Positions 8,380 through 63,495 of a DNA stretch of 64,000 nt are shown here, piece by piece; position 1 is the stretch's first letter, and each line of letters begins with the position of its first letter. The notes below the pieces were generated by a model. The model searched no databases. It was not told the origin of the DNA and was given only the letters and a program-made list of their open reading frames with translations. Location: IMG/VR virus record IMGVR_UViG_3300031784_000007; one strand, written 5' to 3'. The translations under genes and the position numbers were made by a program. The DNA is from a virus. Lineage: Duplodnaviria > Heunggongvirae > Uroviricota > Caudoviricetes.

Positions 8380-8387
8380 AATAAATA
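8380..8387 (-). promoter_or_regulatory. Late motif TATTTATT before the tube initiator gene
   Basis: Recurrent motif, 14 nt before the ATG. Confidence 0.6.
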
Positions 8388-8409
8388 GATGTAACAGGAT
8401 TTTTTATTC

Positions 8410-10008
8410 TTATTTTTTACCAGGTGATGACGAGCCAACACTATATCCACTACTATCTGATGCGCTTACCTTGATTGATTTTGCAATCTCATTCGCAATA
8501 TGTGTTTTAATAACATCTGACAATCCAACATCAATACCCGTAACCTTAACATCAATTACCGGATTACCCTCAACTTTAATAAATTTATCTTTAGAAACCG
8601 CTTGTGTGTATTCATTTATTCTATCTAAAAAAGTATCCTTATCACCAGCAGAAAAAGATGTTTTTAAATCACCAAGTATTTTAGTACCTCCTTCAATTGA
8701 TTTATCTAAAATGTTTTTTACTTGTTCTTGAGCCTTAACAACCACACCTGTGTAACCTTCTAATGTAGTTGAAAAATTACCAGCCTTTAAAGTTGCCATT
8801 GAAAATGCGTTTGTTAACTGATTATTAGCTGAAATAACCGATTCTGTTGCGGATAAATTTCGTTGTATACTATCAATATTAGCTTCTGTATTATTTTTTA
8901 ATTCACTACCTGAACCTTGTATATTTGATAAAATTTCTTTTACTTTATCAGGACTTAACCCACCAATATCTTGACCTTCAATTGTTACAACTCCACCTTT
9001 TTGTAGTTGAGCATAACCTGCAAGTGTTTCTTGTTCTTCTTTAGATAATCCCTCAAACTGTGGTTTAAATTGGAATTGACTTATAATTTTTTCTTGTTTG
9101 GCTAATTTTAAAGCGGTCTCCTCAATTTCTTTAGATTCAATGCCTAAATTTTTTAATCCCCTTAATCTTAATCTTTCATTAGCACTTATTTCAAATTGAC
9201 CAGTTTCTTCATTAAATGTTGCAATACCTCTAGTTGCGTTAATTAATTGGTCATTTAATCCTTTTAAGTCGTTTTGTGCCATGTACAATAACTGAGCACC
9301 ATCTCCAAGTTGTGAAAATGAACCACCCAGTGTTTGAAGTTGTGCGGCGTATTCGTAAGCTTTTTCCGGACTATCCATAATTTGGTCAGCAAAACCTTGA
9401 GCAACACTCAATGTATCACCTAAAAGTTGTGATTTGGCGACCATTGACGCTAAATCTGAAACACCTTTTGGAAAACCATACTTGTTTACTATATCTAATT
9501 TTTCACCGACGGTACCAAGAAATTTACCGACATTTAATCCATACGCCTTTGCCGTGTTAACTAATTGAATTTGTTTTTCTGTGGCGGCATCCATACCACC
9601 ACCAACTTTATCAAAGAACTTAACAAAAGAATTAATAGTCTCACCTTTAACACCGTATTTTTCAATTGCTTCAACATTTTCATAAAATTGTTGAGACAAA
9701 TATGTTGTTCTACCTATTTGTGAATTAATTTCGGTAAATGTTTTAATAACACCTTCCAAAGACCCACCCATTTTGATTACATTAACAGCGGCTCTTCCTA
9801 ATTCGTTTTCAACACTTTTTGCGTAAGCAGCACTTTGTCCTAAATTTCTGGCACCAGAAATTAACTTGGTATCAAAATTTGATACCGTGTTAAGAGTTTC
9901 TTTAAAATTACCTTTTAATCTTTCAGATATCTTACCAACCTTTTCAAGTTCGGCTGCAAGTCCTGTTACTTGTGTGGTTGTTTGGGTTACTTCGTTTTCT
10001 CCTGCCAT
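8410..10008 (-). CDS. Tape measure protein (putative), 532 aa
   Basis: Ala/Gly/Leu/Gln-rich helical composition; position after tube and chaperone genes. Confidence 0.6.
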   Translation of the reverse strand: MAGENEVTQTTTQVTGLAAELEKVGKISERLKGNFKETLNTVSNFDTKLISGARNLGQSAAYAKSVENELGRAAVNVIKMGGSLEGVIKTFTEINSQIGRTTYLSQQFYENVEAIEKYGVKGETINSFVKFFDKVGGGMDAATEKQIQLVNTAKAYGLNVGKFLGTVGEKLDIVNKYGFPKGVSDLASMVAKSQLLGDTLSVAQGFADQIMDSPEKAYEYAAQLQTLGGSFSQLGDGAQLLYMAQNDLKGLNDQLINATRGIATFNEETGQFEISANERLRLRGLKNLGIESKEIEETALKLAKQEKIISQFQFKPQFEGLSKEEQETLAGYAQLQKGGVVTIEGQDIGGLSPDKVKEILSNIQGSGSELKNNTEANIDSIQRNLSATESVISANNQLTNAFSMATLKAGNFSTTLEGYTGVVVKAQEQVKNILDKSIEGGTKILGDLKTSFSAGDKDTFLDRINEYTQAVSKDKFIKVEGNPVIDVKVTGIDVGLSDVIKTHIANEIAKSIKVSASDSSGYSVGSSSPGKK

Positions 10009-10011
10009 AAT

Positions 10012-10019
10012 AATAAATA
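10012..10019 (-). promoter_or_regulatory. Late motif TATTTATT before the tape measure gene
   Basis: 3 nt before the ATG. Confidence 0.6.
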
Positions 10020-10997: not shown

Positions 10998-11486
10998 TTA
11001 ATAAACTAAGATACATCTATCAGGACGAAGTGTTGCTGAGATGGTTTGTAAACCGTCATCAGTATAAGACACACCCTGAAAGTCCACGTCTGTTAGGAAA
11101 CAACCTTGTAAAATCCATTTTTCAACCGCAACACCTGTCGGGTCTAACATTTCCAAAGTAATATCCTTTTTGTAACCAGCAGCATATCCCATACGACCTG
11201 TTACTGATTCAGCGTGTAAACGAACCCATTCCATAAGAGCTTGAGCAGCTGATGGTCCAATAGGGTCACGGAAAGTAACACCAATTGTTCCCCACTCAAA
11301 CATACCAGCAACATAAGTTTTGGTATTTAAGAAAGGAATTTCTTTTGATGCAATTGTTATTTTTGGTCTGGCAGCAGATTCTACATACCAAGAATTAATA
11401 CCCAATGAAGTAGGAAACGTTAAAATAAATCGGTTTTTACGTTTTGGTTCATACGGGTCGGGCATTTTCATTAATAAGTCAGCCAT
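10998..11486 (-). CDS. Tail tube protein (T4 gp19-like)
   Basis: YEPKRKNRFIL..RPKITI..EIPFLN..YVAG..W..I.VTFRDPI..W..GYKKDITLEMLDPTG..VEKWILQGCF; downstream of the sheath gene. Confidence 0.9.
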   Translation of the reverse strand: MADLLMKMPDPYEPKRKNRFILTFPTSLGINSWYVESAARPKITIASKEIPFLNTKTYVAGMFEWGTIGVTFRDPIGPSAAQALMEWVRLHAESVTGRMGYAAGYKKDITLEMLDPTGVAVEKWILQGCFLTDVDFQGVSYTDDGLQTISATLRPDRCILVY

Positions 11487-11526
11487 TTTATTATATTTTT
11501 GTTTTAGTTATTTTAGTTTATTTACC

Positions 11527-11534
11527 TATAAATA
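11527..11534 (-). promoter_or_regulatory. Late motif TATTTATA before the tail tube gene
   Basis: 40 nt before the ATG. Confidence 0.65.
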
Positions 11535-11599
11535 CTTGATTATCCAAATTTTTTCTCTTATATTATCTAGGCGTTCTAGTTTATTATTTATTTAAATAT

Positions 11600-12454
11600 T
11601 TAATATCTAGTTTTAGTTTGAGCTTTTGTTAAATATGTAGTTACTGGATGCTCTAGACCAAATTCTTTATTTAAGAATTCTTTAACTTTTTCCACATTTC
11701 TTTCATCGTCATCTGAGAAACCTATTGAAGGTACCACGAAATTATTGGACACATCATTTTTGAACAATACTTTCCCCCCCACCTTGTTTGCAAGTTCCTT
11801 ACAATAACTGATAAACTCTCTTAATGCGTTTATTTTTCCTTCTTCAGGATTGGCTTCAGAACCAGTTCCGAAAGATACAGGGTGAAAACGACACATGTCC
11901 AAATATTCTTTAATCATTGTATTGTCATCTTTAATATCCTCACCTGTAAAATCACGGTATTTCTTTAATGATTCCACCAATTTTTCTTGGTCCAAACCAC
12001 TCACATTATTTTTGATGAGTTTGTAAACCGCTTGTTTTAAAATCATCGGATTGTGTCCACGAGCTGTGATGATGGAAAAAATTGACCCACCATTAATACA
12101 CTCAACAAAATCATCCCATGATGGTCCCAAACTCGCCGACATTACATCAACCAAAAATTGTCTTTCACCCTCACCTCTAAAATTTCTAAAAGGATTTGAT
12201 GCAAAACCAACAATAGTTTTTCCGTTGTACACAAATGGTTTTTTACCCAATTCGTTTCTATATTCAGCAAAATCATCAGTAGACATACCAATCTCATTAT
12301 CTTTGTCATCTAATACCATAATTTTTGTTGGCATATTCATTACATTGTCATCCCAATCAAAAGCGTAATATTTGTGGTCAGGTAATCCTGATGGGTCCAT
12401 ACCCTCAGTTACCATTTCTAACAATTGTCTTCTAATTGATTTTTTTAAATTCAT
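11600..12454 (-). CDS. HAD-superfamily-like protein with an N-terminal leader
   Basis: YYAFDWDDN (DxD motif I), IITARGH (motif II), GFSDDD (motif IV). Confidence 0.55.
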   Translation of the reverse strand: MNLKKSIRRQLLEMVTEGMDPSGLPDHKYYAFDWDDNVMNMPTKIMVLDDKDNEIGMSTDDFAEYRNELGKKPFVYNGKTIVGFASNPFRNFRGEGERQFLVDVMSASLGPSWDDFVECINGGSIFSIITARGHNPMILKQAVYKLIKNNVSGLDQEKLVESLKKYRDFTGEDIKDDNTMIKEYLDMCRFHPVSFGTGSEANPEEGKINALREFISYCKELANKVGGKVLFKNDVSNNFVVPSIGFSDDDERNVEKVKEFLNKEFGLEHPVTTYLTKAQTKTRY

Positions 12455-12600
12455 TACTTTTTGTCTTTTGATAATTTTGCAATGATACTTTCTAACTGTG
12501 ATTCAGTTAAAACAATGTTTTGTGGTTTTTTAGAATAAGTTTTTTTACCATTAGTTGGTACTTCTAAACTTTCCATTAATACTTTTTTTGTAAATTCCAT
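12454..12600 (-). CDS. Small 48-aa protein with an IVLTESQLE motif
   Basis: Below the track cutoff: MEFTKKVLMESLEVPTNGKKTYSKKPQNIVLTESQLESIIAKLSKDKK*. TAATG coupling to the HAD gene; TATTTATA 9 nt upstream. Confidence 0.75.
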   Translation of the reverse strand: MEFTKKVLMESLEVPTNGKKTYSKKPQNIVLTESQLESIIAKLSKDKK

Positions 12601-12620
12601 AGTTTTATATATAAATAATA

Positions 12621-12656: not shown

Positions 12657-15600
12657 TTAAATATTTTCAAACGAAGCTCCTGTTGGTGTAATCAAGAACT
12701 CAATGTCAATGAATTCAAGAGCTTTTGTTGGTTTAAGGTAAATTTTACCTGTCATTGTGTTTCTATCCAAGTCTTCAGGTGTGTTTGTTACAACAACTCT
12801 AAAGTCAATTAAACCTCTATCTCTTCTGATTGAATCCAAAATTGGATTAACAGAGTCTAAGAAATCTTGTCTAACTTTGTCATCGTTTTGTTCAAACAAC
12901 AATCTGACAGCTACAGCTGAAATCAACTTACGAGCTTGTAACAACAATCTTCTTACGTTAATTCTATCAAGAGCAGATTCTGCGACTTGAGTAGTCTTGT
13001 TACCAAAAATTAATGTTCCAACATCAGAGAATGTTGCGATTGGGTTGATTCTACCTTGATATAATGTATCTCTATCGTCTTGTGTAAGTTTCTTACGAGC
13101 TTTAACTGAATTTACAATACCTCTTGTGTAACCTGCTGATGCGAACCAAGGGAACGAAATGTTATCAGTCAATGCTAAGTTTCTACAAACCTCAGCGGTT
13201 GGTGGAAGGTAAATTTGAGTATTATTGACAGTGTCTCTTGTTAATACCCAAGGGTAGTAAGTTGCTGTGTAGTTAGAATCAATTCCTGTTGTGTCTAAAT
13301 TGTCGACAGCTTCAGTTGGATAAATTAAATCAGTTTCGTACGATGTTGTTGTATCAACAAACATATTGTAATCAGGACAAGTCATTACATATAAAGAGTC
13401 TGCCCTTTGAGATTCAATCATATCAATTGCGTCTTCAACTAAGTTAGAGTTATTAACAAAATCGATACCCGGTGTTACAAACACGTTGATATTTGTAGCC
13501 TCAGGGTTAGCAAATGTTTGTTGACCTAGTAAGTATGCGTAGTAGTCGGTGTTAGCAAAATCAGTTGTATTACCTTCTACAGATATTTGTTTGAACGCTC
13601 CCCAACCAGTTGCACTTGGGAACTGAGTTGTTGGTGATGCACCTTTTAAGTAACCTGAACCACCTAATACAAAGTTATCACCGTTGGTTCTTGATTTTCT
13701 ATAAATGTCCCAACCATCAAAACCTCCACGAGCAAACAACGTGAATTTTCTTGATTGGATTCTAAAATATGGATTTGTAGGGTCACTTGAGTCAGTTGGT
13801 CCAAAAGAAGCGTTTCCAACTTCAAAAGCAGAAGTGCCCGAAGTACTATAACCATTTGATATAGTAACAACAGTAGCACCTGAATCCATGTGGAATCCCT
13901 TAGATAAGAAATCCCAATAACTTGGTGAAGTTTCGATTGTTAAATTTGAAGGTGTGATAATACCTTTATAATTAAAATATTCAGGGTCATAACCAATTGT
14001 GTTGGACAAACCTAAGAATACTCTATTAATTTTATCACCTGAACTTCTTTGAACAGATGATAAAGGTGGTTGGAATATAACCTCACCTGCAACATCATAT
14101 TTAGTTTTATAAATTGGGAATGGTGTTGTTGAACCATAATAATTTCTCATTGAATATCCTTCGAACCCACTCGGTAATGCGTCTGTCGGTGCTTCAGAAC
14201 TAATTTCTAACATTACATATTTAGACCTTACTTGATATTCACCATCACTAGTTCCAATTTTTACACCAACGAAACTGTTAGAAGCTGGGTTCATAGAACA
14301 ATTTGTATATTTTTCTAAGAACACTGGATTTGCATCTGTATCATTATATGCTCTGATACCAACATCAAAAGTACCATTGTTAAACGAAACGTTTAATATT
14401 GATATTTTTACTTCTTGGTTAGCGTCGTTACCATCAGAAATTAAAATAAACTTGAATAATTTATAAACAGTATTACCTCTCAATTCTGAAACTAAATAAG
14501 GTGTTTCAGGAGTTTGATATTTTTCTAAGTAACAACCAATAGATTGTAAAGTACCGTTATCGTCTTGAGCGGATGGTAAAGCTGTGATGGTTTCGTTAAT
14601 ACCTCTAATGTAACCTTTCTTGTATGAATAATTAAGAAAATTCGTAAATTGTTCTTCAACAAATAAAGGAACTTCATCTGAAGGTTTACCGAAGTTAGAA
14701 AAACCAAATACTTTAGAAATATAATTACTGTCTGTTGAATCCAAAGACACTTTAAATTCAAACGTACTACCATCATTAGTAACACCCGAAATTCCGAACG
14801 GTGCGTAAGGACTCATTGTTACACCACTATAAACGCCATTACTATCCAATACAACACTAGTCGTACCCGTAACTTCATAAACAGGATTTGTTCCTGTTGT
14901 ATATGTTGACAGACCTCTTGAACGTAAAGTCGCAACAACAACATCATTGTATTCTGTAAAGGCAGTACCAATTTGTGTAAAAGCCGATAATTGAACCGAA
15001 CCCGAAAACGAACCTGACGCACCTGTTAAGGTGTCAATTTTTGAACTAAACGAATATCCCGAATATCCATTACCAGTTGTTGGGTTGAATTGAGCGTAGT
15101 ACCAAGCGTCATTATCTCTACTTGGATAATCAGTATCAGCGTCTTTTAAACTCGGAACATCATAAACATTTGTTAATCCTGTCCATCCACCACCCGTAAG
15201 TGAGTCATAATAAGAGTCGGGTATTGTACCAAATACGTAAGCAGTTGTTGCACTTGTTGATGCCGCAGATGCGTTAGAACCAATTACACCACTAACAAAT
15301 GTCTTTAACTCAGAACTGATAGTTGATGTTGTACCATCCGATAATGTGAATTGACTATTTAAATCAGGACTAAAAATAGTTGATGGGAATGGAGACTCAA
15401 ACAAAATAGTTGATGTCCCACCAGTTGTTCCTGTAAAAGTTACGGAAACCGACGAAAGAACACTATCTTGTGAAACTGAACCACCACTCACGTTCGCAAT
15501 AGTACTAATAGACCAAGATGGTCCCGCATCATAACCCGACAAACCAAGAATTCTTGATACGAATAATTGGTTAGATTGTGATAAGTATGATTTGGCGATA

Positions 15601-15836: not shown

Positions 15837-15871
15837 TATTTGTTTTTTTTATAAGTTGTTTTATTTACTAC

Positions 15872-15878
15872 ATAAATA
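15872..15878 (-). promoter_or_regulatory. Late motif TATTTAT before the tail sheath gene
   Basis: 35 nt before the ATG. Confidence 0.6.
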
Positions 15879-15958
15879 TTATTGATTTTTGTAAAAATCT
15901 TAGTATAGGGATACTATTTATAAATCAGTATGAATAAATTCTTCCTTTTTTCTGCCCA

Positions 15959-16129
15959 ATGAAAAAAACACCCAAAAAAATAAAGAATATCAAGATATCT
16001 GAAGAATCACACACAATTCTCAAAAAGTATTGTGAAGAAAATGGACTTAAGATTTATGGATTTTTAGAAAATATTATCAAAGAAAAATGTCGTATTAAGA
16101 CCGACATTTACGGTGACCCGTTAGACTAA
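15959..16129 (+). CDS. Ribbon-helix-helix (Arc/CopG-like) DNA-binding protein, 56 aa
   Basis: Below the track cutoff: MKKTPKKIKNIKISEESHTILKKYCEENGLKIYGFLENIIKEKC... (beta strand then two helices with a G turn). Confidence 0.65.
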   Translation: MKKTPKKIKNIKISEESHTILKKYCEENGLKIYGFLENIIKEKCRIKTDIYGDPLD

Positions 16130-17697: not shown

Positions 17698-17750
17698 TAT
17701 TGATAAATACAATAAAATTGATTATATTTCTTTATTAAAACTATTTTGAT

Positions 17751-19517: not shown

Positions 19518-19535
19518 GTTTTTTGAAAATCTATT

Positions 19536-19543
19536 TATTTATA
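19536..19543 (+). promoter_or_regulatory. Late motif TATTTATA before the SOD fusion
   Basis: Tandem TATTTATTTATA, 15 nt before the ATG. Confidence 0.6.
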
Positions 19544-21121: not shown

Positions 21122-21135
21122 TATTTATAAAGAAG

Positions 21136-25339: not shown

Positions 25340-25382
25340 GTTTACCTTGTCTAAATAAATATATGTTACAGAATTGGTATTA

Positions 25383-25763: not shown

Positions 25764-25792
25764 TATCTATAAATACTTTAATTTTAATATTA

Positions 25793-30600: not shown

Positions 30601-30628
30601 GATAAATACAAACAATATGGTATTTATA
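30601..30628. promoter_or_regulatory. Back-to-back divergent late motifs
   Basis: TATTTATC on the minus strand (30601-8) and TATTTATA on the plus strand (30621-8) in a 50-nt gap. Confidence 0.65.
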
Positions 30629-46272: not shown

Positions 46273-47082
46273 ATGGAAAATAAAGTAGATATTTCAGTTA
46301 TATTACCAATCGCATCATCATTTGGAAAAGATTTTGACATTCTTTTTGAAAAAGCGATTGACTCAATAAAAAAACAACAAGTTTCAATTAATGAACTTAT
46401 TATTGTTCATTCGGATGAAGAATCATTATGTACTAAATTAAATTCATTTGATTTTGGTGATTTAAATGTTGTTAAAGTATTAAACACATCAGAACATACT
46501 GATTACGCATCACAAGTTAATCTTGGTGTCAAAAACGCATCATCAACATGGGTTAGTTTCTTTGAACACGATGATGAATATTCGTTTATATGGTTTAAAA
46601 ATGTGAATGATTATATTAAATACCACCCTGAGTGTGATGGATTTTTACCAATCGTTGTTGATGTTGATGAAACAGATGTATTCGCGGGATACACAAATGA
46701 AGCAACATTTGCGGCTTCATTCAACACTGAAATTGGTATTCTAACTAATGAATTGTTAAATCAATATCAAAATTTCCAAACAAGTGGAATGGTTGTTAAA
46801 AAATCAATTTTGGATAATTTTGGTGGTTTTAAAAAATCAATGAAACTAACATTTGTTTATGAATTTTTATTAAGATTGACATATAACTCAGCAAGAATAA
46901 TGACTATTCCAAGATTGGGATACAAACATGCTAACATGAGAGAATCATCAATTTTTTGGGGATATAAAAACGGAAAAAATGTTTTGACCGACAACGAGGT
47001 TAAGTTTTGGATTGATACAGCAAAAAAAGAATATTTTTTTACAAATGACCGTGACATAAAATACGAAGAAACCACTAATTAA
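46273..47082 (+). CDS. Glycosyltransferase family 2
   Basis: ISVILPI, ELIIV, NLGV, FFEHDDEY, YEFLLRL. Confidence 0.8.
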   Translation: MENKVDISVILPIASSFGKDFDILFEKAIDSIKKQQVSINELIIVHSDEESLCTKLNSFDFGDLNVVKVLNTSEHTDYASQVNLGVKNASSTWVSFFEHDDEYSFIWFKNVNDYIKYHPECDGFLPIVVDVDETDVFAGYTNEATFAASFNTEIGILTNELLNQYQNFQTSGMVVKKSILDNFGGFKKSMKLTFVYEFLLRLTYNSARIMTIPRLGYKHANMRESSIFWGYKNGKNVLTDNEVKFWIDTAKKEYFFTNDRDIKYEETTN

Positions 47083-47837
47083 TGATAGTTTCCGAAACAA
47101 TTCCAAGCGGGAACACTGAATCCGCAGACTCAAAACGCAGTAAAAAAATTAAGTCAAATAATTATTTTGACGTAAGAGAAGAGACTGCGGTTGTTATGTT
47201 TTTGGAAGCTGAAACTATGAAAGAAAGAAACGAAATTTATAATGAGTTTCTTAAAAAACCAATAGAAAAAATGGTTTCTTCTATAATTAGAAGATACAAA
47301 TTATATAGAAAGGACATGTCATTTGATGAAATATTAAATGACACCCATTCTTTTTTAATTACAAAATCAGACAAGTTCAAACCAGATAAGAACAAAAAAG
47401 CATATTCTTATTTTGGTACGATTTGTAAAAATTATTTGATGGGTCAAATTATAAAAGACCAAAAGGATACCAATAGAAAAGTATCTTATGAAGATATTTC
47501 ATCTAGTTTAGAAGAAAGACCTGATTTGGTGTATTACATTGAAGATGACATAATTGAAACTGATAAAATAATAATAGATTATATCGCTCAACTAAAAACG
47601 TTCATTGACGTATCATCATTAAACGAAAATGAGGTTAAATTAGGTTATGCTTTGTTAGAATTATTTGAAAATTATGATTCAATTTTTGTTGGTAATGATA
47701 ACAAAAAATTTAACAAAAATTTGGTTTTAATGTCAATTCGTGAAATGACAAACCTTTCAACAAAAGAAATTAGATTAAGTATGAAAAAATACAAAAAACT
47801 ATATTTTGATTTTGTTAAAAGTATTGATAACAGATAA
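47082..47837 (+). CDS. Phage sigma factor (T4 gp55-like late sigma)
   Basis: Region-2-like KFKPDKNKKAYSYFGTICKNYL; directly precedes a late-motif gene. Confidence 0.6.
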   Translation: MIVSETIPSGNTESADSKRSKKIKSNNYFDVREETAVVMFLEAETMKERNEIYNEFLKKPIEKMVSSIIRRYKLYRKDMSFDEILNDTHSFLITKSDKFKPDKNKKAYSYFGTICKNYLMGQIIKDQKDTNRKVSYEDISSSLEERPDLVYYIEDDIIETDKIIIDYIAQLKTFIDVSSLNENEVKLGYALLELFENYDSIFVGNDNKKFNKNLVLMSIREMTNLSTKEIRLSMKKYKKLYFDFVKSIDNR

Positions 47838-47851: not shown

Positions 47852-47859
47852 TATTTATA
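47852..47859 (+). promoter_or_regulatory. Late motif TATTTATA
   Basis: 3 nt before ATG 47863, immediately after the sigma gene. Confidence 0.65.
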
Positions 47860-47862
47860 AGT

Positions 47863-48240: not shown

Positions 48241-48249
48241 TTTAATATT

Positions 48250-52183: not shown

Positions 52184-52195
52184 TATTTATATATA

Positions 52196-54411: not shown

Positions 54412-54417
54412 CAAAAT

Positions 54418-55319: not shown

Positions 55320-55352
55320 TTTTTTACGATTATTATATATAAATATCTTACT

Positions 55353-55574: not shown

Positions 55575-55603
55575 AAAAAGGGACAATTTCTTGTCCCTTT
55601 TTT
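55573..55603. terminator. Bidirectional terminator downstream of the major capsid gene
   Basis: A7-GGGACAA-TTTC-TTGTCCC-T6 (GAAA loop on the minus strand). Confidence 0.85.
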
Positions 55604-55620
55604 ATTTCATTTAGAAAAGA

Positions 55621-57417
55621 TTATCTCAATTCTCTTAAGTCAAATGTTCTAACACCATCAACTGTGATTTTACCGTAGAAACGGTTGTTCACCATCTTCT
55701 TAGCGTATCTTGTCATGATACCTTTGATAGGTGTGAAGTTGAATGGGTTATACATTGTTGGAGTCAATTGTAATGGTACGTATGGTGCGTACACATAACC
55801 TGTGTCTAACAATGAGTTACCTTTATGACCAATCAACACTGTGTTTGGTGGAAAATAAGGGTCTCTGTAAACTTGGTATCTACCAGCCAAAGTTCCAACT
55901 CTTTCAATACCCATGTTATATTGGTCTTGCTCAGGAGCTGCGTTTGATACGTGGAAGTATTCCAAATCATCAAAGATTGCACTGATTTCAGAAGAAACAA
56001 CAATCCAGTTAGCTCCACCTCTCAATGTTGATTTGTGGATTTGAGCTGAAAGTTGGTTGATTGCTGTAATCAATGTTTGGTTCCAATCTTTTTGTGTGTA
56101 TTGTGTTAATGGATTTGCAGTTGTACCTCTCTTCCAACCGTTGTAATCCCATCTCAAAGTCCATGCTGCACCTTTTCTCAAATCTCTCAAGATTTCTCTA
56201 TCAATTTCTGCCGCAACTTGCTCAGACAATAAAGCTGTTAATTCAGCTTCAGCGTCAATGTTGTGGAATGCTGCAACGTCTTGTGCTAATTCAGGAGACC
56301 ATTGTGCTCTCAATTTTCTTTCAGTTACAGAAACTGTTACTGATTCCAAATCAAAAGAAACTTCACCGATTTCATCTTCAAATTCTAAGTTTTGATAAAC
56401 TCTATATGTACATTTGAATGCTTGATTATATGCGGTTGTTACAGATGTTGTAACACCTGAGTAACCATCTAAAGAATCAGCACCGATTGAACAAGGAACT
56501 TGAGTATCCACCTCTAAGTAAATAATACCAAGAGCATCACAGATATTGTCATAAGAACCTCCATTACCTGTACTTGGGAATGATGTTGTTGCTTGTGAAC
56601 CATATTGTACAATACCTTTACCGTATTTTTGAGTTACAACTCTAAATAATTGGTTACCAGACAATCCTGAAAAACCATTTGAAGTAGCATCTGTAATTGG
56701 TGTTACAGATAAGCTAGACAAAAACTCTTCAGAATCCATTTCGTTACCGTTAGGACCAATTAATTTACCAGCACCAGCTGTGTTAAATCCTGATAAAGCA
56801 ATAATAACTTTTCTGTATTCACCAGCACTGTAACCACTTTGGATTAATTCTGAACCACTCCAAACTTGTGTAGACGCTGTGTATGTTTCAGCACTAAACT
56901 TACCTTTAGAATAGTCAAATAACCCTGGAGGGTCTAATGATGCTTCGTTACCTTCGTAGAATCTGTCATACAAATTCTTATCGTTTGCGCCATAACCAGC
57001 ATTTGTTGATGATGGTCCATTAGGTGCTCCAAAAGGTGCGAAGTGTGTACCACCTTCAGTTGGGTCTTGACCCATGTCATAACCCTGAATTTTAGGTACG
57101 AAGTAGAACAATTTACCGATAGGTAAGTTCATAGCTTGTACAGATACGATGTCGTTAGCCAACAATTTAGAGAAAACTCTTCTTACGATTGGAAATACAA
57201 CCGTTTCGAAAGAACCGTCTGATGCTGTGCTAGCAGCTTCGTTAATTAAGTGAGATGCTTGGTTTTCATAAAGTTGAGCGATGTTTTCTTTAACATGTCC
57301 TCTCAAACCTTCCAAGAATCCTAATTTGTCCCATTTGTTAATAGTATCTTCTTTGATAACTTTAAGGTGCTTAAGACCGATGTTACCAACAAGACCTGAT
57401 TCTAATAATGCTCCCAT
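55621..57417 (-). CDS. Major capsid protein (T4 gp23-like)
   Basis: IVSVQAMNLPIG.LF, RKLRAQWSPELAQD..AFH.IDAEAEL..LS.Q..EIDREI, YAPYVPL, GIMTRYA. Confidence 0.97.
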   Translation of the reverse strand: MGALLESGLVGNIGLKHLKVIKEDTINKWDKLGFLEGLRGHVKENIAQLYENQASHLINEAASTASDGSFETVVFPIVRRVFSKLLANDIVSVQAMNLPIGKLFYFVPKIQGYDMGQDPTEGGTHFAPFGAPNGPSSTNAGYGANDKNLYDRFYEGNEASLDPPGLFDYSKGKFSAETYTASTQVWSGSELIQSGYSAGEYRKVIIALSGFNTAGAGKLIGPNGNEMDSEEFLSSLSVTPITDATSNGFSGLSGNQLFRVVTQKYGKGIVQYGSQATTSFPSTGNGGSYDNICDALGIIYLEVDTQVPCSIGADSLDGYSGVTTSVTTAYNQAFKCTYRVYQNLEFEDEIGEVSFDLESVTVSVTERKLRAQWSPELAQDVAAFHNIDAEAELTALLSEQVAAEIDREILRDLRKGAAWTLRWDYNGWKRGTTANPLTQYTQKDWNQTLITAINQLSAQIHKSTLRGGANWIVVSSEISAIFDDLEYFHVSNAAPEQDQYNMGIERVGTLAGRYQVYRDPYFPPNTVLIGHKGNSLLDTGYVYAPYVPLQLTPTMYNPFNFTPIKGIMTRYAKKMVNNRFYGKITVDGVRTFDLRELR

Positions 57418-57452
57418 TTTTTAAAATATTTAGTTTGTTTTTAGTTTATTTT

Positions 57453-58736
57453 TTATTTATTCATTTTTGACATAAGGTCCTTCATTCTTAAGAACTGTGG
57501 ATTTTCATATGTCTTACTTTCAACCAAATTAGTTGAACCTTTTGATGGTGTTCTATCAATGTTTTCAACGATAGATTCTTTAACCATTGGTTTTTCAACT
57601 GAACCCAATTCCTCTTTAATAGTTTGATAAAGATTTTTAGATTCTTTGATTGTTTCGACGTTGTCAAAACGTCTCATGATATTTATTTTTTCTGATTTTG
57701 TAGTTGTATGTTCAGTAAACAATCTTGTAGCGTAAGCTAAGTTAGAATTGAAAACAGCAACTTCATTTAATTTTTCTCTGAAAATATTTAATGCTTTTCT
57801 GTACTCTTCATTTTTAGCTCTCAACTTTTCAACTTCTTCTTGTAAAGCGTCATTTGTAATAACTTTCATTTTTGGAAGACCTTTTCTTTTTGGAAAATTT
57901 CTACTTCCATTTCCGTAAGTTCTAGCAGCTTCTTTTGTTTCAGTTTCTTTTTCTTCAACATCATGTTCACCTTCCTTAAATTCAAATTTCTTAGGACCTT
58001 TAAAGTTTTCTTTGTGTTGTGACATGTTAGATTTGAAACCTTGCATGTTTACTTTACCTGAAGATTTTTCTGATTTAACTTTTCCCATACCCATACCTTT
58101 TGGTTTAACCATCATACTAGATTCCGTTACTGTAGAGTCATCTTCATCAACATTATCATCTTCACCTAATTCAATTTCGTAAACAATTTCTTCGTCGTAT
58201 GATTCATTAGTATCATTAGAGTTGTAATAATCTGACTCTTCTAATGATTCCATCATGTCATCGTCTTGGAAAGTAATTTTGTCTACATCTAAATCTTCAC
58301 CAGTTTTCTTAATGATAACTCCGTCATTATCGCCCATACCGTTAAGTACTGCCATAATTTCTTCCATAGATGCTCCCGTCATGTCTAACGGTTCTAGTTC
58401 ATCATCATCATCTTCCAATCCCATGTCATCCATGTCATCCATGTCATCCATTTTCATAGAATCTGAATCATCGGACATCATATCATCACCCATCATAGGT
58501 GTCTTCATGTCCATAGCCATCAATGAATCTTCTTCTTCATCTTCAGTAACATCTTCGTTACTATAAGACTCATCTACAGCATAAGTGTCAGCCTCTTCAA
58601 GAGACTCTTTTACTAACTCTTCGATTTCTTCCTTCATTGTAGAAGCAAGTATTCCTTTTGCGTTTTCGGTAACAACTTGTTCCAAATTTTTCATTTGTAA
58701 CAACGCTTCCTCAACTAATGATTTTTTTTCGCTCAT
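57453..58736 (-). CDS. Prohead core scaffold protein (gp22-like)
   Basis: Acidic D/E/M-rich with a coiled-coil C-terminus (LNEVAVFNSNLAYATRLF); directly upstream of MCP. Confidence 0.8.
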   Translation of the reverse strand: MSEKKSLVEEALLQMKNLEQVVTENAKGILASTMKEEIEELVKESLEEADTYAVDESYSNEDVTEDEEEDSLMAMDMKTPMMGDDMMSDDSDSMKMDDMDDMDDMGLEDDDDELEPLDMTGASMEEIMAVLNGMGDNDGVIIKKTGEDLDVDKITFQDDDMMESLEESDYYNSNDTNESYDEEIVYEIELGEDDNVDEDDSTVTESSMMVKPKGMGMGKVKSEKSSGKVNMQGFKSNMSQHKENFKGPKKFEFKEGEHDVEEKETETKEAARTYGNGSRNFPKRKGLPKMKVITNDALQEEVEKLRAKNEEYRKALNIFREKLNEVAVFNSNLAYATRLFTEHTTTKSEKINIMRRFDNVETIKESKNLYQTIKEELGSVEKPMVKESIVENIDRTPSKGSTNLVESKTYENPQFLRMKDLMSKMNK

Positions 58737-58768
58737 TTTTTGTGTAATAAAATAGTTTTTATTTACAC

Positions 58769-58776
58769 TATAAATA
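58769..58776 (-). promoter_or_regulatory. Late motif TATTTATA before scaffold-MCP
   Basis: 32 nt before the ATG. Confidence 0.65.
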
Positions 58777-58818
58777 TGCCCCTAATCAAAAAAATCTTAA
58801 ATGGTGATATAATAAAAT

Positions 58819-58844
58819 AAAAAAAACCCGATTTCTCGGGTTTT
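58819..58844 (-). terminator. Intrinsic terminator
   Basis: AAAACCCGA-GAAA-TCGGG-T8 on the minus strand. Confidence 0.8.
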
Positions 58845-58847
58845 AAA

Positions 58848-59057
58848 TTATTCAAAAACTTCATCGATTTTACTTTCACTGACTGCCGTTATTCGCCAAT
58901 CATGTTGAAATCCTTTGAATTTTTCGGTTACTTTAGCTTCAACATCTGTTACGCTGTAACCTTTAACTAATTTTTCTTCTCTAACTTTTTTGATTTTTCC
59001 TGTGTTTTCATCAATCAAGTCGTACTGAATTTTTGCTACAAAATATTTTTCGTCCAT
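58848..59057 (-). CDS. DUF4494-like small protein
   Basis: YFVAKIQY..ENTGKIKKVRE.LV.GYSVTDVEAK resembles recalled Bacteroidota DUF4494 proteins. Confidence 0.5.
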   Translation of the reverse strand: MDEKYFVAKIQYDLIDENTGKIKKVREEKLVKGYSVTDVEAKVTEKFKGFQHDWRITAVSESKIDEVFE

Positions 59058-59067
59058 AATAATAATT

Positions 59068-59790
59068 TTATCTATATCCCAAAAAATCGTTCAATTTTCC
59101 CATTAAGTCAAGCGATTTACCTAAACCACCATCAATTCTTCCATCTTCTTTTGATTTTTTTTCTTCTTCAAGATTTTCATCGTATTTGTGACGGTCATCC
59201 TTATTAAGGAATAGATAAGCGCCGGGTGTAGATGGATTCATAACCAAGTCAAAACAAATCATTTCATAATCATTTTGAACTTCATTGTGTTCTCCCTTTT
59301 TAGCTAAAGAACCTACACCACGTGAAGATACCCCCATCGTAACACCTTGTCTCATTAAGTTTGCCGCTACATCACCCTTAGATGATACAATACCTCTTTC
59401 ATGGAAACCTGGTGTTGTTAATAACCTTAGTTTACCCATAAGAACGTTATCATCCCACCATATATCATCAATAATGTGTGATACTCTGTCTAAATCAATC
59501 AAAGATGATTCAGGGTGATTAAGTTCTGATGTTGCCAAACCTTTAGATATTGTTTGTTTATATTTTTCAGCTTCTCTTTTAAGAATATTTTCAGGATATA
59601 CACGACCATTTCTATTAGGTGTACCATACTTTTGTAGAGTTGCGTAAAATACAAATGGTTTAGAGTGGTCTAATTGTGATTTTTGTTCATTAACTAAATC
59701 AGTATCTACGGCATTTTTCATAGATATATGACCTGCATCATATTCTATCAATATTCCTTTACCTATTTCATTCGGTTTAAGTATCTTCAT
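59068..59790 (-). CDS. Prohead protease (T4 gp21-like)
   Basis: NRNGRVYP, ELNHP (His), RVSHII, GVSSRGVGSL (Ser), FDLVMNPSTPGA. Confidence 0.95.
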   Translation of the reverse strand: MKILKPNEIGKGILIEYDAGHISMKNAVDTDLVNEQKSQLDHSKPFVFYATLQKYGTPNRNGRVYPENILKREAEKYKQTISKGLATSELNHPESSLIDLDRVSHIIDDIWWDDNVLMGKLRLLTTPGFHERGIVSSKGDVAANLMRQGVTMGVSSRGVGSLAKKGEHNEVQNDYEMICFDLVMNPSTPGAYLFLNKDDRHKYDENLEEEKKSKEDGRIDGGLGKSLDLMGKLNDFLGYR

Positions 59791-59813
59791 ATTAAAATAT
59801 TTATCAATAAATA

Positions 59814-60272
59814 TTAGAATATCTCAAAGTTTTTGTTTTTCAACTTGTTTTTAGAATATTGAATGGTAAAATACTTTGATTTCTTTAAAACATTGTCGTG
59901 AACTTCTTTTAATACGTGATTTAATTCTGTTGATATATTTTCAGATTTGAACTCAATATTTTCTTTTGTAAAGAATGTAATTTCAAGATTTAAAAAACTT
60001 GCTTTATCTACTTTTATCCCACTTGTTCTTAAATCTAAATCAACAATAAAATGTTCTTTGAATAATGATTTATTGTAAACTTCTAAAACTTTATGTTTAA
60101 TAGTTCGAGATATTGTCCCAACTACTCTTTCCCAATTATCCCTTTCTTGTGTGGGTGTTACCCATGTTTGTAATACTAAATAAATTGATTTTAATTCTGT
60201 CGCATCTACACTACCGTAATAGCACTTAGCATCTTGGAATAAATCCAATTTTGATGTTTTTCCTTTTTTCAT
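59814..60272 (-). CDS. Hypothetical protein
   Basis: 152-aa ORF. Confidence 0.6.
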   Translation of the reverse strand: MKKGKTSKLDLFQDAKCYYGSVDATELKSIYLVLQTWVTPTQERDNWERVVGTISRTIKHKVLEVYNKSLFKEHFIVDLDLRTSGIKVDKASFLNLEITFFTKENIEFKSENISTELNHVLKEVHDNVLKKSKYFTIQYSKNKLKNKNFEIF

Positions 60273-60355
60273 TCTTTTTCATTTGTGAAATGTTTATTTG
60301 TTGTAGTGAAAAGATAATAAAAAAAAACTTATTAACAAATTTAATTTTATTTGTA

Positions 60356-60363
60356 TATTTATA
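60356..60363 (+). promoter_or_regulatory. Late motif TATTTATA before bS21
   Basis: 21 nt before the ATG. Confidence 0.6.
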
Positions 60364-60384
60364 TCAATAACACACATTTTTTAT

Positions 60385-60579
60385 ATGATAAAAATAATTT
60401 TAGAAAAAGGTGAAAGTTTGGAAAAAGCTTTAAAACGTTACAAACACAAAGTTATCAAAACAAAACAAATTGAACAACTTCGTGCAAAACAAGAGTATGT
60501 TAAAAAAACAACTTTGAAAAGGGAACAAATAAAAAAAGCAATATACAAACAACAAATCGCCCAAAGTAACTTTGACTAA
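60385..60579 (+). CDS. rpsU: Phage-encoded ribosomal protein bS21
   Basis: GESLEKALKRYKHKV.KT..I.QLR..Y.K..KR pattern, 64 aa; located in the head module as reported for bS21 phages. Confidence 0.9.
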   Translation: MIKIILEKGESLEKALKRYKHKVIKTKQIEQLRAKQEYVKKTTLKREQIKKAIYKQQIAQSNFD

Positions 60580-60606
60580 TATTTATTGGTAACAAATACC
60601 AAGAAT

Positions 60607-60846
60607 ATGAAAAACTTTATTATGAATTTACTAGGAAACGGTTCTGACGTTTCATCAAAAAGATTCGCATCTTTATTCACTTTATTAAACGTAATTATCT
60701 TAGCTTATGTTGCAACATTTACATCTAAAGATGGTGTAACACCTGAGTATATGTTTGATGCACTTTGTTTAATTGCTGGTGGTGGATTGGGTCTTACAGT
60801 TGTTGAGAAGATTTTCTCAAAAGGTTCAGACAAAAAAGCTGAATAA
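60607..60846 (+). CDS. Small two-TM membrane protein (holin-like)
   Basis: SSKRF followed by hydrophobic FASLFTLLNVIILAYVATF and YMFDALCLIAGGGLGLTVV; charged C-terminus. Confidence 0.5.
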   Translation: MKNFIMNLLGNGSDVSSKRFASLFTLLNVIILAYVATFTSKDGVTPEYMFDALCLIAGGGLGLTVVEKIFSKGSDKKAE

Positions 60847-60847
60847 C

Positions 60848-60874
60848 AAAAAACCCCTCTTTTGAGGGGTTTTT
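60848..60874. terminator. Bidirectional terminator
   Basis: A6-CCCCTC-TTTT-GAGGGG-T5 between convergent genes. Confidence 0.85.
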
Positions 60875-60877
60875 ATT

Positions 60878-61603
60878 TTAAAGTCCTTCTGACAACTTTT
60901 TAAGTTTGTAATATGATAAGGAATCAATCGGTGTTGATTCTATTCTTACCTTTGTTTCATTTAATTTTTTGTTGGTATCATCATCACTTTCGTTAATACT
61001 TGAAAGTTTTCCAAGAACCTCAGTTTTCAATCTTTCAATACCTTCACTCAATTCTTCTTGTGACATTCTTAAGATTGATTTTAATTCAAACAATTCAGAT
61101 TCACTTAATTGTGAATATTCTTTTGCGAATGTGTCAGCTGCCACACCAAACATAGATTCTAATGGAATGTTAACTGATTCTGTGATTGTTGATTCTTCTT
61201 TTGTTTCTGACATTAACTTCCACATTTGTTTTCTTGATTCAACCAATTTAGTAAAATCATCGGCGGTTTTTGCATAAACCATGTTATCTAATAACTCATA
61301 TTGATTATCAATACTTTCTCCTAAAGTTTCAACCCAGCTGTCGAACTGTTCAAATTCACGTTTGTTACTGTTAATTGTATTTTTTATGAAATCAACTGAA
61401 AGTCCCAAAAATTCTTTCGCAACTTCTTCGTTCAATCCTTTGGTTTTCATTAAGGAACCGTATTCAACATATAGTTCACCAACGGATTTGTTGTCCTTAA
61501 TAAAATCTCTAAATTCTTTTATAATTTGTTTAAAATCTTCAGTTTTGTATGTTTTAACTAAAGCATTTTCAACAATACTTTTTAATAATCCAAAATTTCT
61601 CAT
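60878..61603 (-). CDS. Hypothetical head-module protein
   Basis: 241 aa, directly downstream of portal; late motif 3 nt upstream. Confidence 0.6.
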   Translation of the reverse strand: MRNFGLLKSIVENALVKTYKTEDFKQIIKEFRDFIKDNKSVGELYVEYGSLMKTKGLNEEVAKEFLGLSVDFIKNTINSNKREFEQFDSWVETLGESIDNQYELLDNMVYAKTADDFTKLVESRKQMWKLMSETKEESTITESVNIPLESMFGVAADTFAKEYSQLSESELFELKSILRMSQEELSEGIERLKTEVLGKLSSINESDDDTNKKLNETKVRIESTPIDSLSYYKLKKLSEGL

Positions 61604-61616
61604 ATCAATAAATATC

Positions 61617-63458
61617 TTAAGTATTTAATAATTCGTTTAATTTGGTTTCAATTTCATTAATTGATGTTCTACCTTTAGATAAATCAATTTCATCTCTACC
61701 ACTAATTAAATCATCTTCCAAAATTAAATTTAAATCGTTCATTTTACTTTCAGGTGTTACTTCACCTCCAGCCGGTGGTTCAGGGGATTCAGGAATATCA
61801 GGTGCTCCACCCATATCTTCAGGTCCTCCACCTATTCCACCTAAACTACCCATATCACCACTTGGTGGTGCTCCACCCATATCGTCACCCTCAGCAGGTG
61901 GCGTGGCTGTTTCACCGGGTTTCTTACCATACAATCTATCAATATTATCAAAAATACCTGTATGAATAATTACCTCAGGAGTTTTTTGTAATTCAGCCCC
62001 AACTGCTTTTTCAATTCTTTGTTGTTGGATATCCAATTTAATTTCCTCATCAGAGAATCCAAGAATGTGTTTTTTTGCCCATGTTGTTGATACCGCTTGG
62101 ATACCGTTACCTGGGTCAGAAACCGCATCTTTATAAAGAAGTATTTTTTCTTTCCAATTCTCAATCTTTAATAAATCAGCTTGAGTTGATGGGTTAGTTA
62201 ATCCTAATGTGAAGTTTGTTAATTCATCTTCAAAACCAAGAATAAACAAGTGAATAATTGCAATCTTATTTAATTCCTGAATCATTGATTTTTGAATTCT
62301 ATTAATTGTTCTCGCAAAACGAATATCTTGTAATGCCAAGTTCTTACCATCACCAACAACTTCTTCAAAACCTAAGAACGCTTTTGGTACACGAAGAGCG
62401 GTTAATAATTTCTTTTGGATATATTCAATATCGGCAATTTCAGAAAGGTTCTGTGCTCCCGCCAATGTTTCAATAGGACTTGTTTGTGCTGGGTCACGAA
62501 CAGGAATGAAATAATCTTGGTCAACCGCCATTTGGTTCATTCTTAAGTCAACGTTACCTGTTTTTGAGTCAACAACTTGGTCTCTCTTAAACTTATTAGC
62601 AATTCTTTGAATGTATGGTTCAACGTCCTTATCATCCATGTTACCAACATAAACTTTGAATACACGTCTTTCAGGTGCTCTTGATGTTCTATACACCAAC
62701 ATTGCATCTTCTGATAATAACAACTGTTTCCAAGTACGTCTTGCTTTTTCCAACATAGCAGTACCATAAGGAAGTTTTCTATCATCACCTAACAAACGGA
62801 AGTGTGCGACCTCCCAAGTATTCATTTCCATATCTTTTACTTTCCATACGAATTTCAAAGATTTTGCATCCTCAGTTGTATTATGTGATGGTTTGATTTT
62901 CATACCACGTTCCAAACGTTCAATTTCAATGTTTGGAAGTTGTTGACAACCCATAATACCTTTTTCAGAATCTAATTTTAAGTAAACAAAGTTATCACCA
63001 TACTTACAAGTGTTTCTTGTCCACATTGGTAAGTTGGTGTTAATATCTAATCTGTTATTAAATAAATCCGCTAATATTCCCTTAATTCTATTTGATTCTG
63101 AATATATTTGTAGAATATATCCATCTTCATTTGTTGTTGTTGATTCTTCAGCGTAGATATCTAAAGCTGCGGAAATTTCAGGAGTGTATTCCATTGATTC
63201 ATAATCATAATATGATGCCAATCTTGTTGGTTCATAATAAATTGCCTGAGAATATAAATTATTTTCTACTTTACCCCATTGTTGACCAAGATACATTGTC
63301 TGTTGAGCTTGGAGTTTTTCCTTCTCAAATTCTTGCTTATCTGTGGTTTTTAATAATTCCTTCTTATCAAATTTATAAACTGGAGGCTGTTGACCCAAAG
63401 TTGAGTCGGGACCAAAGACTTTGGTAAGTCGTTGCCATATGGTGAAATTGTCTGCCAT
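61617..63458 (-). CDS. Portal protein (T4 gp20-like)
   Basis: YESMEYTPEISAALDIYAEE, EDAMLVYRTSRAPERRVFKVYVGNM, DYFIP, IETLAG, KKLLTALRVP. Confidence 0.97.
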   Translation of the reverse strand: MADNFTIWQRLTKVFGPDSTLGQQPPVYKFDKKELLKTTDKQEFEKEKLQAQQTMYLGQQWGKVENNLYSQAIYYEPTRLASYYDYESMEYTPEISAALDIYAEESTTTNEDGYILQIYSESNRIKGILADLFNNRLDINTNLPMWTRNTCKYGDNFVYLKLDSEKGIMGCQQLPNIEIERLERGMKIKPSHNTTEDAKSLKFVWKVKDMEMNTWEVAHFRLLGDDRKLPYGTAMLEKARRTWKQLLLSEDAMLVYRTSRAPERRVFKVYVGNMDDKDVEPYIQRIANKFKRDQVVDSKTGNVDLRMNQMAVDQDYFIPVRDPAQTSPIETLAGAQNLSEIADIEYIQKKLLTALRVPKAFLGFEEVVGDGKNLALQDIRFARTINRIQKSMIQELNKIAIIHLFILGFEDELTNFTLGLTNPSTQADLLKIENWKEKILLYKDAVSDPGNGIQAVSTTWAKKHILGFSDEEIKLDIQQQRIEKAVGAELQKTPEVIIHTGIFDNIDRLYGKKPGETATPPAEGDDMGGAPPSGDMGSLGGIGGGPEDMGGAPDIPESPEPPAGGEVTPESKMNDLNLILEDDLISGRDEIDLSKGRTSINEIETKLNELLNT

Positions 63459-63495
63459 CCCTCTAAATATAGTATCTTTTTTTTATGAATAAACT

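Follow-up and report, generated by a model that had tools for sequence, protein, structure and literature searches.

The window analysed here, a stretch of 64,000 nucleotides (nt) from the IMG/VR record IMGVR_UViG_3300031784_000007 (Caudoviricetes), covers positions 15994–79993 of an 85-kb viral record that has a G+C content of about 31% and is approximately 27% complete according to the CheckV estimate. Its structural genes are of the T4 type. A 16-kb block on the plus strand carries genes for glycosyltransferases, an exonuclease, a dUTPase and PhoH, and its last gene (47082–47837) encodes a candidate sigma factor. The heptamer TATTTAT, subsequently referred to as the box in this text, precedes the genes for tail tube, tail sheath, prohead protease and portal (in the window as a TATTTAG variant), the gene for ribosomal protein bS21 and the unit that ends in the gp23 capsid gene. 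We consider it very probable that this box is a promoter. Judged by the capsid protein, the closest cultured phages are Flavobacterium phage vB_FspM_immuto and Microcystis phage Mel-JY01 (about 42% identity), while Rhodothermus phage RM378 is more distant. The phage resembles the bS21-encoding phages of Bacteroidetes that Chen et al. 2022 (PMC9723584) reported from lakes, and it apparently belongs to the same lineage.

Over the whole window, TATTTAT occurs 44 times, compared with 43.1 copies expected. On the coding strand in the 40 nt upstream of ATG starts, however, we found 22 copies, whereas dinucleotide shuffles gave 2.9 ± 1.7 (at most 9 in 1000), and TATTTAT is the most enriched of all 7-mers upstream of the starts in the window. 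Its reverse complement stays at background in the same place (6 versus 4.5). The comparison with shuffled DNA that had been proposed in a preliminary description of the window thus gave a divided answer, with no excess over the window as a whole and a strong coding-strand excess upstream of starts. In the 85-kb contig, 33 of the 54 copies lie inside intergenic DNA, which makes up 7.1% of the sequence, and 26 of these 33 face a start on the same strand at most 70 nt away. All 21 TATTTAT sites and the TATTTAG variant listed in the preliminary description are present in the sequence. Five of them had been placed one base off by counting the eighth base of the box, and their correct positions are 11528, 12611, 25769, 55339 and 58770.

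The boxes are not spread evenly over the genes. None of the 22 genes in the block from 31.4 to 47.8 kb is preceded by a box, compared with 20 of 40 genes elsewhere in the window (Fisher p = 2.8e-5), and the earlier observation that the SNF2, glycosyltransferase operon and PhoH starts lack it was therefore correct. The placement before late genes is judged by gene function only, with boxes at structural genes and 0/22 in the metabolic block. Boxes also head the first gene of divergent units at 17697, 30594, 30645, 55319 and 60385. A relaxed host-type promoter pattern (TTG N17-21 TAnnTTT) is not enriched upstream of genes in the window (10 seen, about 8.5 expected). Isolated matches to it are found upstream of 59814–60272, 33183–34394 and the sigma gene, and are suggestive only. 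The one upstream of the box-less 59814–60272 (TTG, 19–21 nt, TAnnTTT) lies within 60273–60384 and overlaps the bS21 box on the other strand. The individual sites are listed in Table 1.

Table 1. Boxes and selected genes of the window. Distances run from the box to the start of the gene named; fractions of orthologues are those with a box.
Feature	Position	Strand	Remarks
TATTTAT	8381..8387	-	15 nt before ATG of 3710-8365 (1551 amino acids, aa); kept in 9/9 orthologues
TATTTAT	10013..10019	-	4 nt before ATG of 8410-10008 (532 aa); candidate leaderless class
TATTTAT	11528..11534	-	41 nt before tail tube 10998-11486; followed by AAATAAAC tract; 52/52 orthologues
TATTTAT	12611..12617	-	10 nt before small open reading frame (ORF) 12454-12600; G+C hairpin directly precedes the box
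TATTTAT	15872..15878	-	35 nt before tail sheath 12657-15836; 67/67 orthologues
TATTTAT	15915..15921	+	37 nt before small ORF 15959-16129; divergent partner of the sheath box; 41/47 orthologues
TATTTAT	17703..17709	-	5 nt before ATG of 17185-17697, first gene of minus-strand tail unit; candidate leaderless class; 45/47 orthologues, 41 at 4-5 nt
TATTTAT (two, overlapping)	19532..19542	+	20 and 16 nt before superoxide dismutase (SOD)-domain gene 19559-21121; 22/23 orthologues
TATTTAT	21122..21128	+	abuts the preceding stop codon; 7 nt before 21136-22251 (weak head-tail adaptor hit); 30/30 orthologues
TATTTAT	25355..25361	-	57 nt before DNA polymerase 22568-25297; weakest case; only 6/13 orthologues
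TATTTAT	25769..25775	-	5 nt before ATG of 25383-25763; candidate leaderless class
TATTTAT	30602..30608	-	7 nt before 28693-30594, first gene of minus-strand unit
TATTTAT	30621..30627	+	17 nt before 30645-31376, first gene of plus-strand unit
TATTTAT	47852..47858	+	4 nt before ATG of 47863-48240 (125 aa); candidate leaderless class
TATTTAT	52184..52190	+	abuts a stop codon; 5 nt before ATG of 52196-53695; candidate leaderless class
TATTTAT	55339..55345	-	19 nt before 54432-55319; 11/12 orthologues
TATTTAT	58770..58776	-	33 nt before 57453-58736; 27/27 orthologues; capsid 55621-57417 next, without own box
TATTTAT	59807..59813	-	16 nt before prohead protease 59068-59790; 52/52 orthologues
TATTTAT	60356..60362	+	22 nt before bS21 gene 60385-60579; 41/56 orthologues
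TATTTAT	60580..60586	+	20 nt before 60607-60846
TATTTAT	61608..61614	-	4 nt before ATG of 60878-61603; candidate leaderless class here; 67/69 orthologues, most at 13-16 nt
TATTTAG variant	63463..63469	-	4 nt before portal ATG (61617-63458); relatives with TATTTAT 67/76
Tail tube	10998-11486	-	
Tail sheath	12657-15836	-	
Family-B DNA polymerase	22568-25297	-	
Candidate late sigma gene (251 aa)	47082..47837	+	without own TATTTAT; last gene of the motif-free block
gp23-type capsid	55621-57417	-	
Prohead protease	59068-59790	-	
Ribosomal protein bS21	60385-60579	+ (opposite to the head genes)	PF01165, E 1e-9
Portal	61617-63458	-	

The same signal is found in related phages. Two IMG/VR scans with the portal and the sheath as queries yielded 160 related loci (1.69 Mb), and in the first 80 of them TATTTAT was again the top upstream 7-mer (312 copies, 12 expected). 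Its presence is close to all-or-none for each orthologue. All orthologues of the tube (52/52), sheath (67/67) and protease (52/52) genes have a box, while it is missing from those of the capsid gene (0/15), 11600–12454 (0/52) and 22256–22591 (0/27), and 59814–60272 has it in a single case (1/63). The seven letters remain constant among the relatives; their flanks have fully diverged and the distance to the ATG is variable. For example, the box of 60878–61603 is separated from the ATG by 4 nt in the window and its close relatives and by 13–16 nt in most others, with the same first residue aligned. Boxes are found in 53–60% of the intergenic gaps of at least 12 nt in the relatives, versus 4% of the tighter junctions. 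The late-gene signal that had been seen in the window is thus conserved at the same orthologues over a large phage lineage.

A sequence logo of 185 de-duplicated sites contains information only at the box itself, at an A in position -1, at a weak TT at -15/-14 and in an A-rich patch downstream. The base following the box is A in 58% and T in 31% of the sites. The A-rich peak lies 5–8 nt downstream of the box (positions 11–14 counted from the first T) and remains when the ATG is at least 16 nt away. The box is therefore a single -10-like element, and the logo displays no conserved -35. Terminator-like hairpins with a T-run lie within 45 nt upstream of 23 out of 301 box sites and of 10 out of 832 motif-less genes, six times more often in the former, and at several sites in the relatives terminator, box, 4 nt and ATG follow each other directly. 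The most expressed late genes, namely the tube gene, the sheath gene and the gene before the capsid (11487–11599, 15837–15900, 58737–58800), share two further conserved pieces, an AAG and T-run 11–14 nt upstream of the box and AAATAAA(C) 4–6 nt downstream of it. The former may serve as an UP-like element and the latter as a conserved 5' end of the mRNA. A hairpin formed by TATTTA and TAAATA before the tube gene, the sheath gene, 57453 and the protease gene was considered and dropped, as the second half turned out to be an A-rich tract of variable spacing with no conserved complement in the relatives.

We could also observe the box in the cultured relatives. TATTTAT is the top upstream 7-mer both in immuto (13 copies versus 0.7 expected) and in Mel-JY01 (11 versus 0.8). 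In Mel-JY01, it lies upstream of GGAG Shine-Dalgarno ribosome-binding sites, which excludes a translation signal of fixed geometry. The recorded hosts of these two phages belong to different phyla with a different primary-sigma consensus, and the reader of the shared word should therefore be phage-encoded. Upstream of its late-region genes, RM378 has TTATTTAA(A), in which the box is changed by one letter (TATTTAA, 10 versus 0.4 expected).

Taken together, the enrichment upstream of starts, the strand bias, the restriction to structural genes, the conservation at orthologues, the discontinuous spacing described below and the presence in phages whose recorded hosts belong to two phyla lead us to infer a promoter function. 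The known element that comes closest is the T4 late promoter TATAAATA, which gp55 reads together with gp33 and the gp45 clamp. When both are read in the same orientation, TATTTATA and TATAAATA are identical at six of eight positions (1, 2, 3, 6, 7 and 8) and differ at positions 4 and 5. In the open complex formed with T4 gp55, as seen by cryo-EM, the adenines at -12, -9 and -8 are flipped, with those at -12 and -8 held in deep pockets and the one at -9 in a shallow pocket (PMC7892883). Positions 2 and 6 of our box, its only adenines, correspond to the deep-pocket adenines -12 and -8, and position 5 (the shallow -9) is a T here. The preliminary description had been puzzled that the T4 box, read on the other strand, gives exactly this 8-mer, and had proposed a distinct kind of initiator. 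None is needed, since TATAAATA is nearly palindromic and TATTTATA therefore resembles it closely even when both are read in one direction, with both deep-pocket adenines retained. The comparison suggests, as the economical reading, a variant of the T4 late promoter in unchanged orientation; the box consensus (TATTTAT followed by A or T) departs from the exact T4 consensus at positions 4 and 5.

Like the T4 late promoters, the box comprises 8 bp, is AT-rich and -10-like, lacks a conserved -35, stands before structural genes and often occurs several times per gene string. It differs from them in its central bases (TT here, AA in T4), in the many boxes that abut a start codon and in the predicted hosts, which are Bacteroidota without Shine-Dalgarno use. 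T4 late promoters are not known to adjoin the start codon. The primary-sigma promoter of the Bacteroidota, with TTTG at -33 and a -7 box TAnnTTTG at -12 to -5 (PMC9723704), resembles the box in its AT-richness, its initial TA and its similar distance to the start site. However, two of the six defined positions of TAnnTTTG differ from the box, there is no -33 element (the logo displays no upstream TTG conservation), and the box, unlike that promoter, is also used by a phage recorded on a cyanobacterium.

The distance between box and ATG falls into separate classes. Among 301 de-duplicated sites, we found none at 1–3 nt, 57 at 4–5 nt, 13 at 6–10 nt, 129 at 12–18 nt and a broad group at 29–42 nt. 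Single orthologues switch between the classes of 4–5 and 12–16 nt with no intermediates. Such gaps would be expected if transcripts began 5–6 nt downstream of the box and very short leaders were poorly translated. The short distances reported before were right, with 4–5 nt from the 7-mer (3–4 nt from the 8-mer) at the ATGs 10008, 17697, 25763, 47863, 52196 and 61603. These box-adjacent ATGs are the first in-frame ATG after a nearby stop codon, and the next one follows 20–131 codons downstream. For 17185–17697, the first gene of a divergent unit, 41 of 47 relatives keep the distance of 4–5 nt, and no other upstream element is conserved. The idea of a near-leaderless subset has thus gained weight, as the spacing peak and the abutting terminators both fit leaderless mRNAs, and judging from the sequences we think that the 4–5 nt class is probably leaderless. 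There may be a phage precedent. Sevostyanova and colleagues are said to have found in 2007 that the middle and late genes of Thermus phage phiYS40 are expressed leaderless. As in phiYS40 and in Deinococcus-Thermus, a -10-like box stands at a fixed short distance from the start (4–5 nt here) and no -35 is needed; however, leaderless mRNAs are widely used by Deinococcus-Thermus hosts and rarely by Bacteroidota hosts. The -10 box of the former, TANNNT, is situated 6–7 bp before the ORF and gives leaderless expression (PMC12340547).

We examined the product of 47082–47837 as the possible reader of the box. Its AlphaFold model has a pLDDT of 74, and residues 31–139 match sigma region 2, for example in AlgU (8z6g_B, Z 8.3, root-mean-square deviation (rmsd) 2.9 Å over 91 residues) and in region 2 of sigma E (4lup_A, Z 8.4, rmsd 2.9 Å over 91 of 91 residues). 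In the Foldseek list, as in an unbiased search of 48,161 chains, sigma chains predominate. T4 gp55 (7d7d_F) is matched with Z 6.3, rmsd 4.2 over 103 residues and 16% identity, the highest identity in the list, and the C-terminal domain of the candidate gives weak fold hits to sigma H (Z 6.2) and to region 4 (Z 4.9). A Z of about 8 is middling for helical domains, and our confidence that the model represents a sigma region-2 fold is moderate. An hhalign comparison with gp55 gave E 0.0016 over 111 columns at a probability of only 16%, and in a one-way search of a 190-kb relative with gp55 the sole match was the orthologue of 47082–47837 (E 0.005). Searches with the candidate in PHROGs, Pfam, the PDB (phmmer and profile searches) and cultured phages (tblastn) yielded no informative match. 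Homologues are present in immuto (immuto35A_152, E 6e-11) and Mel-JY01 (E 6e-12), both annotated as hypothetical. About 7,900 homologues exist in total, and the SprT-like label that some sources attach to them is wrong. We agree with the preliminary description that this is probably a sigma-family protein with a weak likeness to gp55, from which it differs in its length (251 aa compared with 185 aa) and its extra C-terminal helical domain.

The hhalign alignment places F86 and Y97 of gp55 on the family-invariant residues F99 and Y110, H95 of the -9 pocket on Y108, and T99 on G112. In gp55, Y97 stacks on the -12 adenine (PMC7892883). This correspondence of pocket residues is suggestive but not proof. 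The position of the gene at the end of the motif-free block suits a factor that is made before the late genes. On this evidence, it seems reasonably likely that the 47082–47837 sigma reads TATTTAT. The small ORF that follows, 47863–48240 (125 aa), has syntenic counterparts after the sigma homologue in immuto (116 aa) and Mel-JY01 (131 aa), with weak collinear similarity in the N-terminal part (E 0.005 and 0.15). Its product could be a partner of the sigma factor, either gp33-like or an anti-sigma.

The explanation that we favor, and regard as likely overall, is a phage-specific class of late promoters in which TATTTAT is essentially the sole conserved element, with a preference for A before it and for A or T after it. 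The host RNA polymerase, equipped with a phage-encoded sigma factor, would read the box on the non-template strand, with orientation and register as for TATAAATA in T4. This sigma would be the product of 47082–47837, made from the motif-free and presumably earlier block. Transcription would start about 5–7 nt downstream of the last T of the box, within the conserved A-rich patch. Most late mRNAs would then have short A-rich leaders, their box lying 12–18 or 29–42 nt from the ATG. Roughly one site in five in the family, and 8 of 28 in this contig, has only 4–5 nt between box and ATG, and the A of this ATG would be the first transcribed base of a leaderless mRNA. The finding probably represents late transcription of the T4 type in which the box is altered, the sigma factor is longer and a subclass of the mRNAs is probably leaderless.

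Several observations weigh against this explanation. The long plus-strand unit to which the motif-free block belongs has a box (30621) in front of its first gene, and the timing classes are therefore not cleanly separable by sequence alone. None of 15 orthologues of the gp23 capsid gene, the late gene with the highest expression, is preceded by a box, so that this gene should be co-transcribed with 57453–58736. RM378 uses TATTTAA and has no detectable homologue of the 47082–47837 product. The similarity behind the sigma assignment is weak (no Pfam or PHROG hit, Z about 8, hhalign probability 16%). Homologues of gp33 and gp45 were not found when T4 gp45, T4 gp33 and PF09116 were searched in five incomplete records, although such proteins diverge fast, and a T4-like clamp coupling is thus unsupported. 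Under strict T4 geometry, with the box at -13 to -6, transcription in the 4–5 nt class would begin at the G or T of the start codon (PMC7892883). Finally, the RNA data are assembled contigs, which display a good representation of the capsid region and not the transcript starts. They come from 24 listed runs, four of which (three RNA, one of unrecorded type) were compared with 47000–64000. Lake and freshwater metatranscriptome assemblies contain pieces of the phage or its close relatives, mostly short ones from the capsid gene and its upstream neighbour. The ends of two RNA contigs fall at 58652 and that of one contig of unknown type at 58755, none of them at the predicted start; being contig ends, they speak neither for nor against it. 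As a separate observation, the spacer upstream of 55621–57417 carries AATAAATAAAAAA in place of a box.

The point on geometry bears on leaderlessness in particular, which needs a start 1–2 nt closer to the box because the T4 register would begin within the ATG. The A-rich peak at positions 12–13 from the first T fits a start 6 nt after the box as in T4. If, however, the TA of the box is set at -12/-11 as in the host element TAnnTTTG (PMC9723704), a 5-nt spacer makes the A of the ATG +1. It is possible, though in our view rather doubtful, that the boxes are late promoters whose 4–5 nt class is not leaderless, with transcripts that begin inside or beyond the ATG and feed the downstream genes while the adjacent gene is translated from upstream read-through. 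Most of the 4–5 nt sites do lie within co-directional gene strings, where read-through is possible, and leaderless mRNAs are rare in Bacteroidota: they amount to 5.5% in F. psychrophilum (PMC9723704), and 5' untranslated regions shorter than 10 nt to 3.7% in B. thetaiotaomicron. However, the sharp peak at 4–5 nt next to the trough at 6–10 nt and the empty distances of 1–3 nt would be unexpected if the ATG were irrelevant to the box. Nor does read-through sit well with 17185–17697, which heads a divergent unit and lacks any other conserved upstream element, or with those relatives that have a strong terminator right before the box, 4 nt and the ATG. An alternative that concerns the reader, and that we find unlikely, is that TATTTAT is a promoter element recognized by something other than the 47082–47837 product. 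This could be another phage factor acting with the host polymerase (an activator or a sigma appropriator) or a second phage sigma. With only about a quarter of the genome in the record, further factors may exist; the link between box and sigma is correlative and covers three lineages, and the annotated sigma of RM378 (Rm378p144), which goes with a related word, has no similarity to the 47082–47837 product in BLASTP. On the other hand, the occurrence of the same word in Flavobacterium and Microcystis phages argues for a shared phage-encoded reader, the 47082–47837 protein is shared by them, and the candidate combines a region-2 fold, which reads -10 elements, with a conserved Tyr aligned with Y97 of gp55.

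Two further readings would do without a promoter on the coding strand. UAUUUAU might act in the mRNA, as a cleavage or processing site, a stability element or a ribosome-loading signal that is possibly linked to bS21, a variant already raised in the preliminary description. Its location always on the coding strand and near starts, the phage bS21 encoded within the late module and the A-rich tract downstream would agree with this. We nevertheless consider it improbable. The box lies anywhere from 4 to about 60 nt from the ATG, orthologues differ in this spacing (4 versus 13–16 nt in 60878–61603), and in Mel-JY01 the box stands upstream of an ordinary Shine-Dalgarno site. Boxes also head divergent units, whose first genes require a promoter in any case, and often come directly after terminators, which leaves little RNA to process; six of their eight positions agree with a known promoter. 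Even harder to believe is that the true signal is TATAAATA on the opposite strand, driving antisense transcription, or that the boxes are chance occurrences in AT-rich spacers. The exact reverse complementarity to the T4 box and the low G+C content could be taken in its favor. However, antisense promoters before nearly all structural genes would serve no gene where the modules are co-directional, as in immuto and Mel-JY01, and neither the excess over dinucleotide shuffles nor the lack of enrichment of the reverse complement upstream of starts would be explained.

Apart from the boxes, a few features of the window were noticed. The SOD-domain gene 19559–21121 (plus strand, 520 aa) encodes a complete Fe/Mn superoxide dismutase, with both Pfam domains, in its first 232 residues and has an unknown C-terminal half; its product may be a late or virion-associated SOD fusion. 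Two very large minus-strand ORFs in 2–8365 had no PHROG hit where tested, one of 2101 aa that runs off the start of the window and one of 1551 aa (3710–8365). Window and genome record disagree at four single bases (11172, 11238, 11295 and 11340), all of which lie within the tail tube gene. Between the protease gene and the gene preceding the capsid lies an ORF of 69 aa (58848–59057, minus strand) that matches only the C-terminal half of DUF4494 (profile positions 71–138 of 139). In Mel-JY01, the bS21 gene is found at roughly the equivalent position.

The preliminary description had also suggested that phage bS21 could be part of one late-expression system. We found no support for 47863–48240 as bS21; the gene is 60385–60579, and it does carry a box. 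In the large lake phages of Bacteroidetes studied by Chen et al. 2022, bS21 is encoded on the reverse strand within the module of terminase, portal, protease and capsid genes, and bS21 and the structural genes are co-expressed late in metatranscriptomes (PMC9723584). Promoters, motifs, sigma factors and leaderless mRNAs are nowhere mentioned in that paper, and the box, its place before the bS21 gene and the sigma candidate are additions to the picture of the bS21 phages. We did not find a published description of the TATTTAT box in the literature on this word with phages or late promoters, on Mel-JY01 or on T4-like late promoters in Flavobacterium phages. One could speculate that late promoter, phage sigma and phage bS21 form a single take-over circuit, in which ribosomes bearing the phage bS21, its gene being under the same promoter, prefer leaderless late mRNAs, or those with an A-rich leader (AAAUAAA...), over host messages. 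We hold this to be a long shot. If true, it would mean that a phage-built specialized ribosome and a phage-built mRNA 5' end fit each other, in a host phylum that does without Shine-Dalgarno pairing.

The lineage concerned is abundant, with more than 590 portal relatives in IMG/VR in addition to the approximately 7,900 homologues of the sigma candidate, and it is active in lakes. A late-promoter rule that consists of one word would split these poorly annotated genomes of about 300 kb into timing classes and transcription units. It would also help to fix start codons and to find virion and other late genes among the unknowns. Beyond annotation, the rule would show how T4-style late transcription was adapted to hosts whose transcription and translation signals are unusual. 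With a phage bS21 gene as its neighbour, the leaderless class may provide a testable handle on why phages carry ribosomal proteins, and the cultured Flavobacterium phage immuto, which has the same box, makes such tests feasible.

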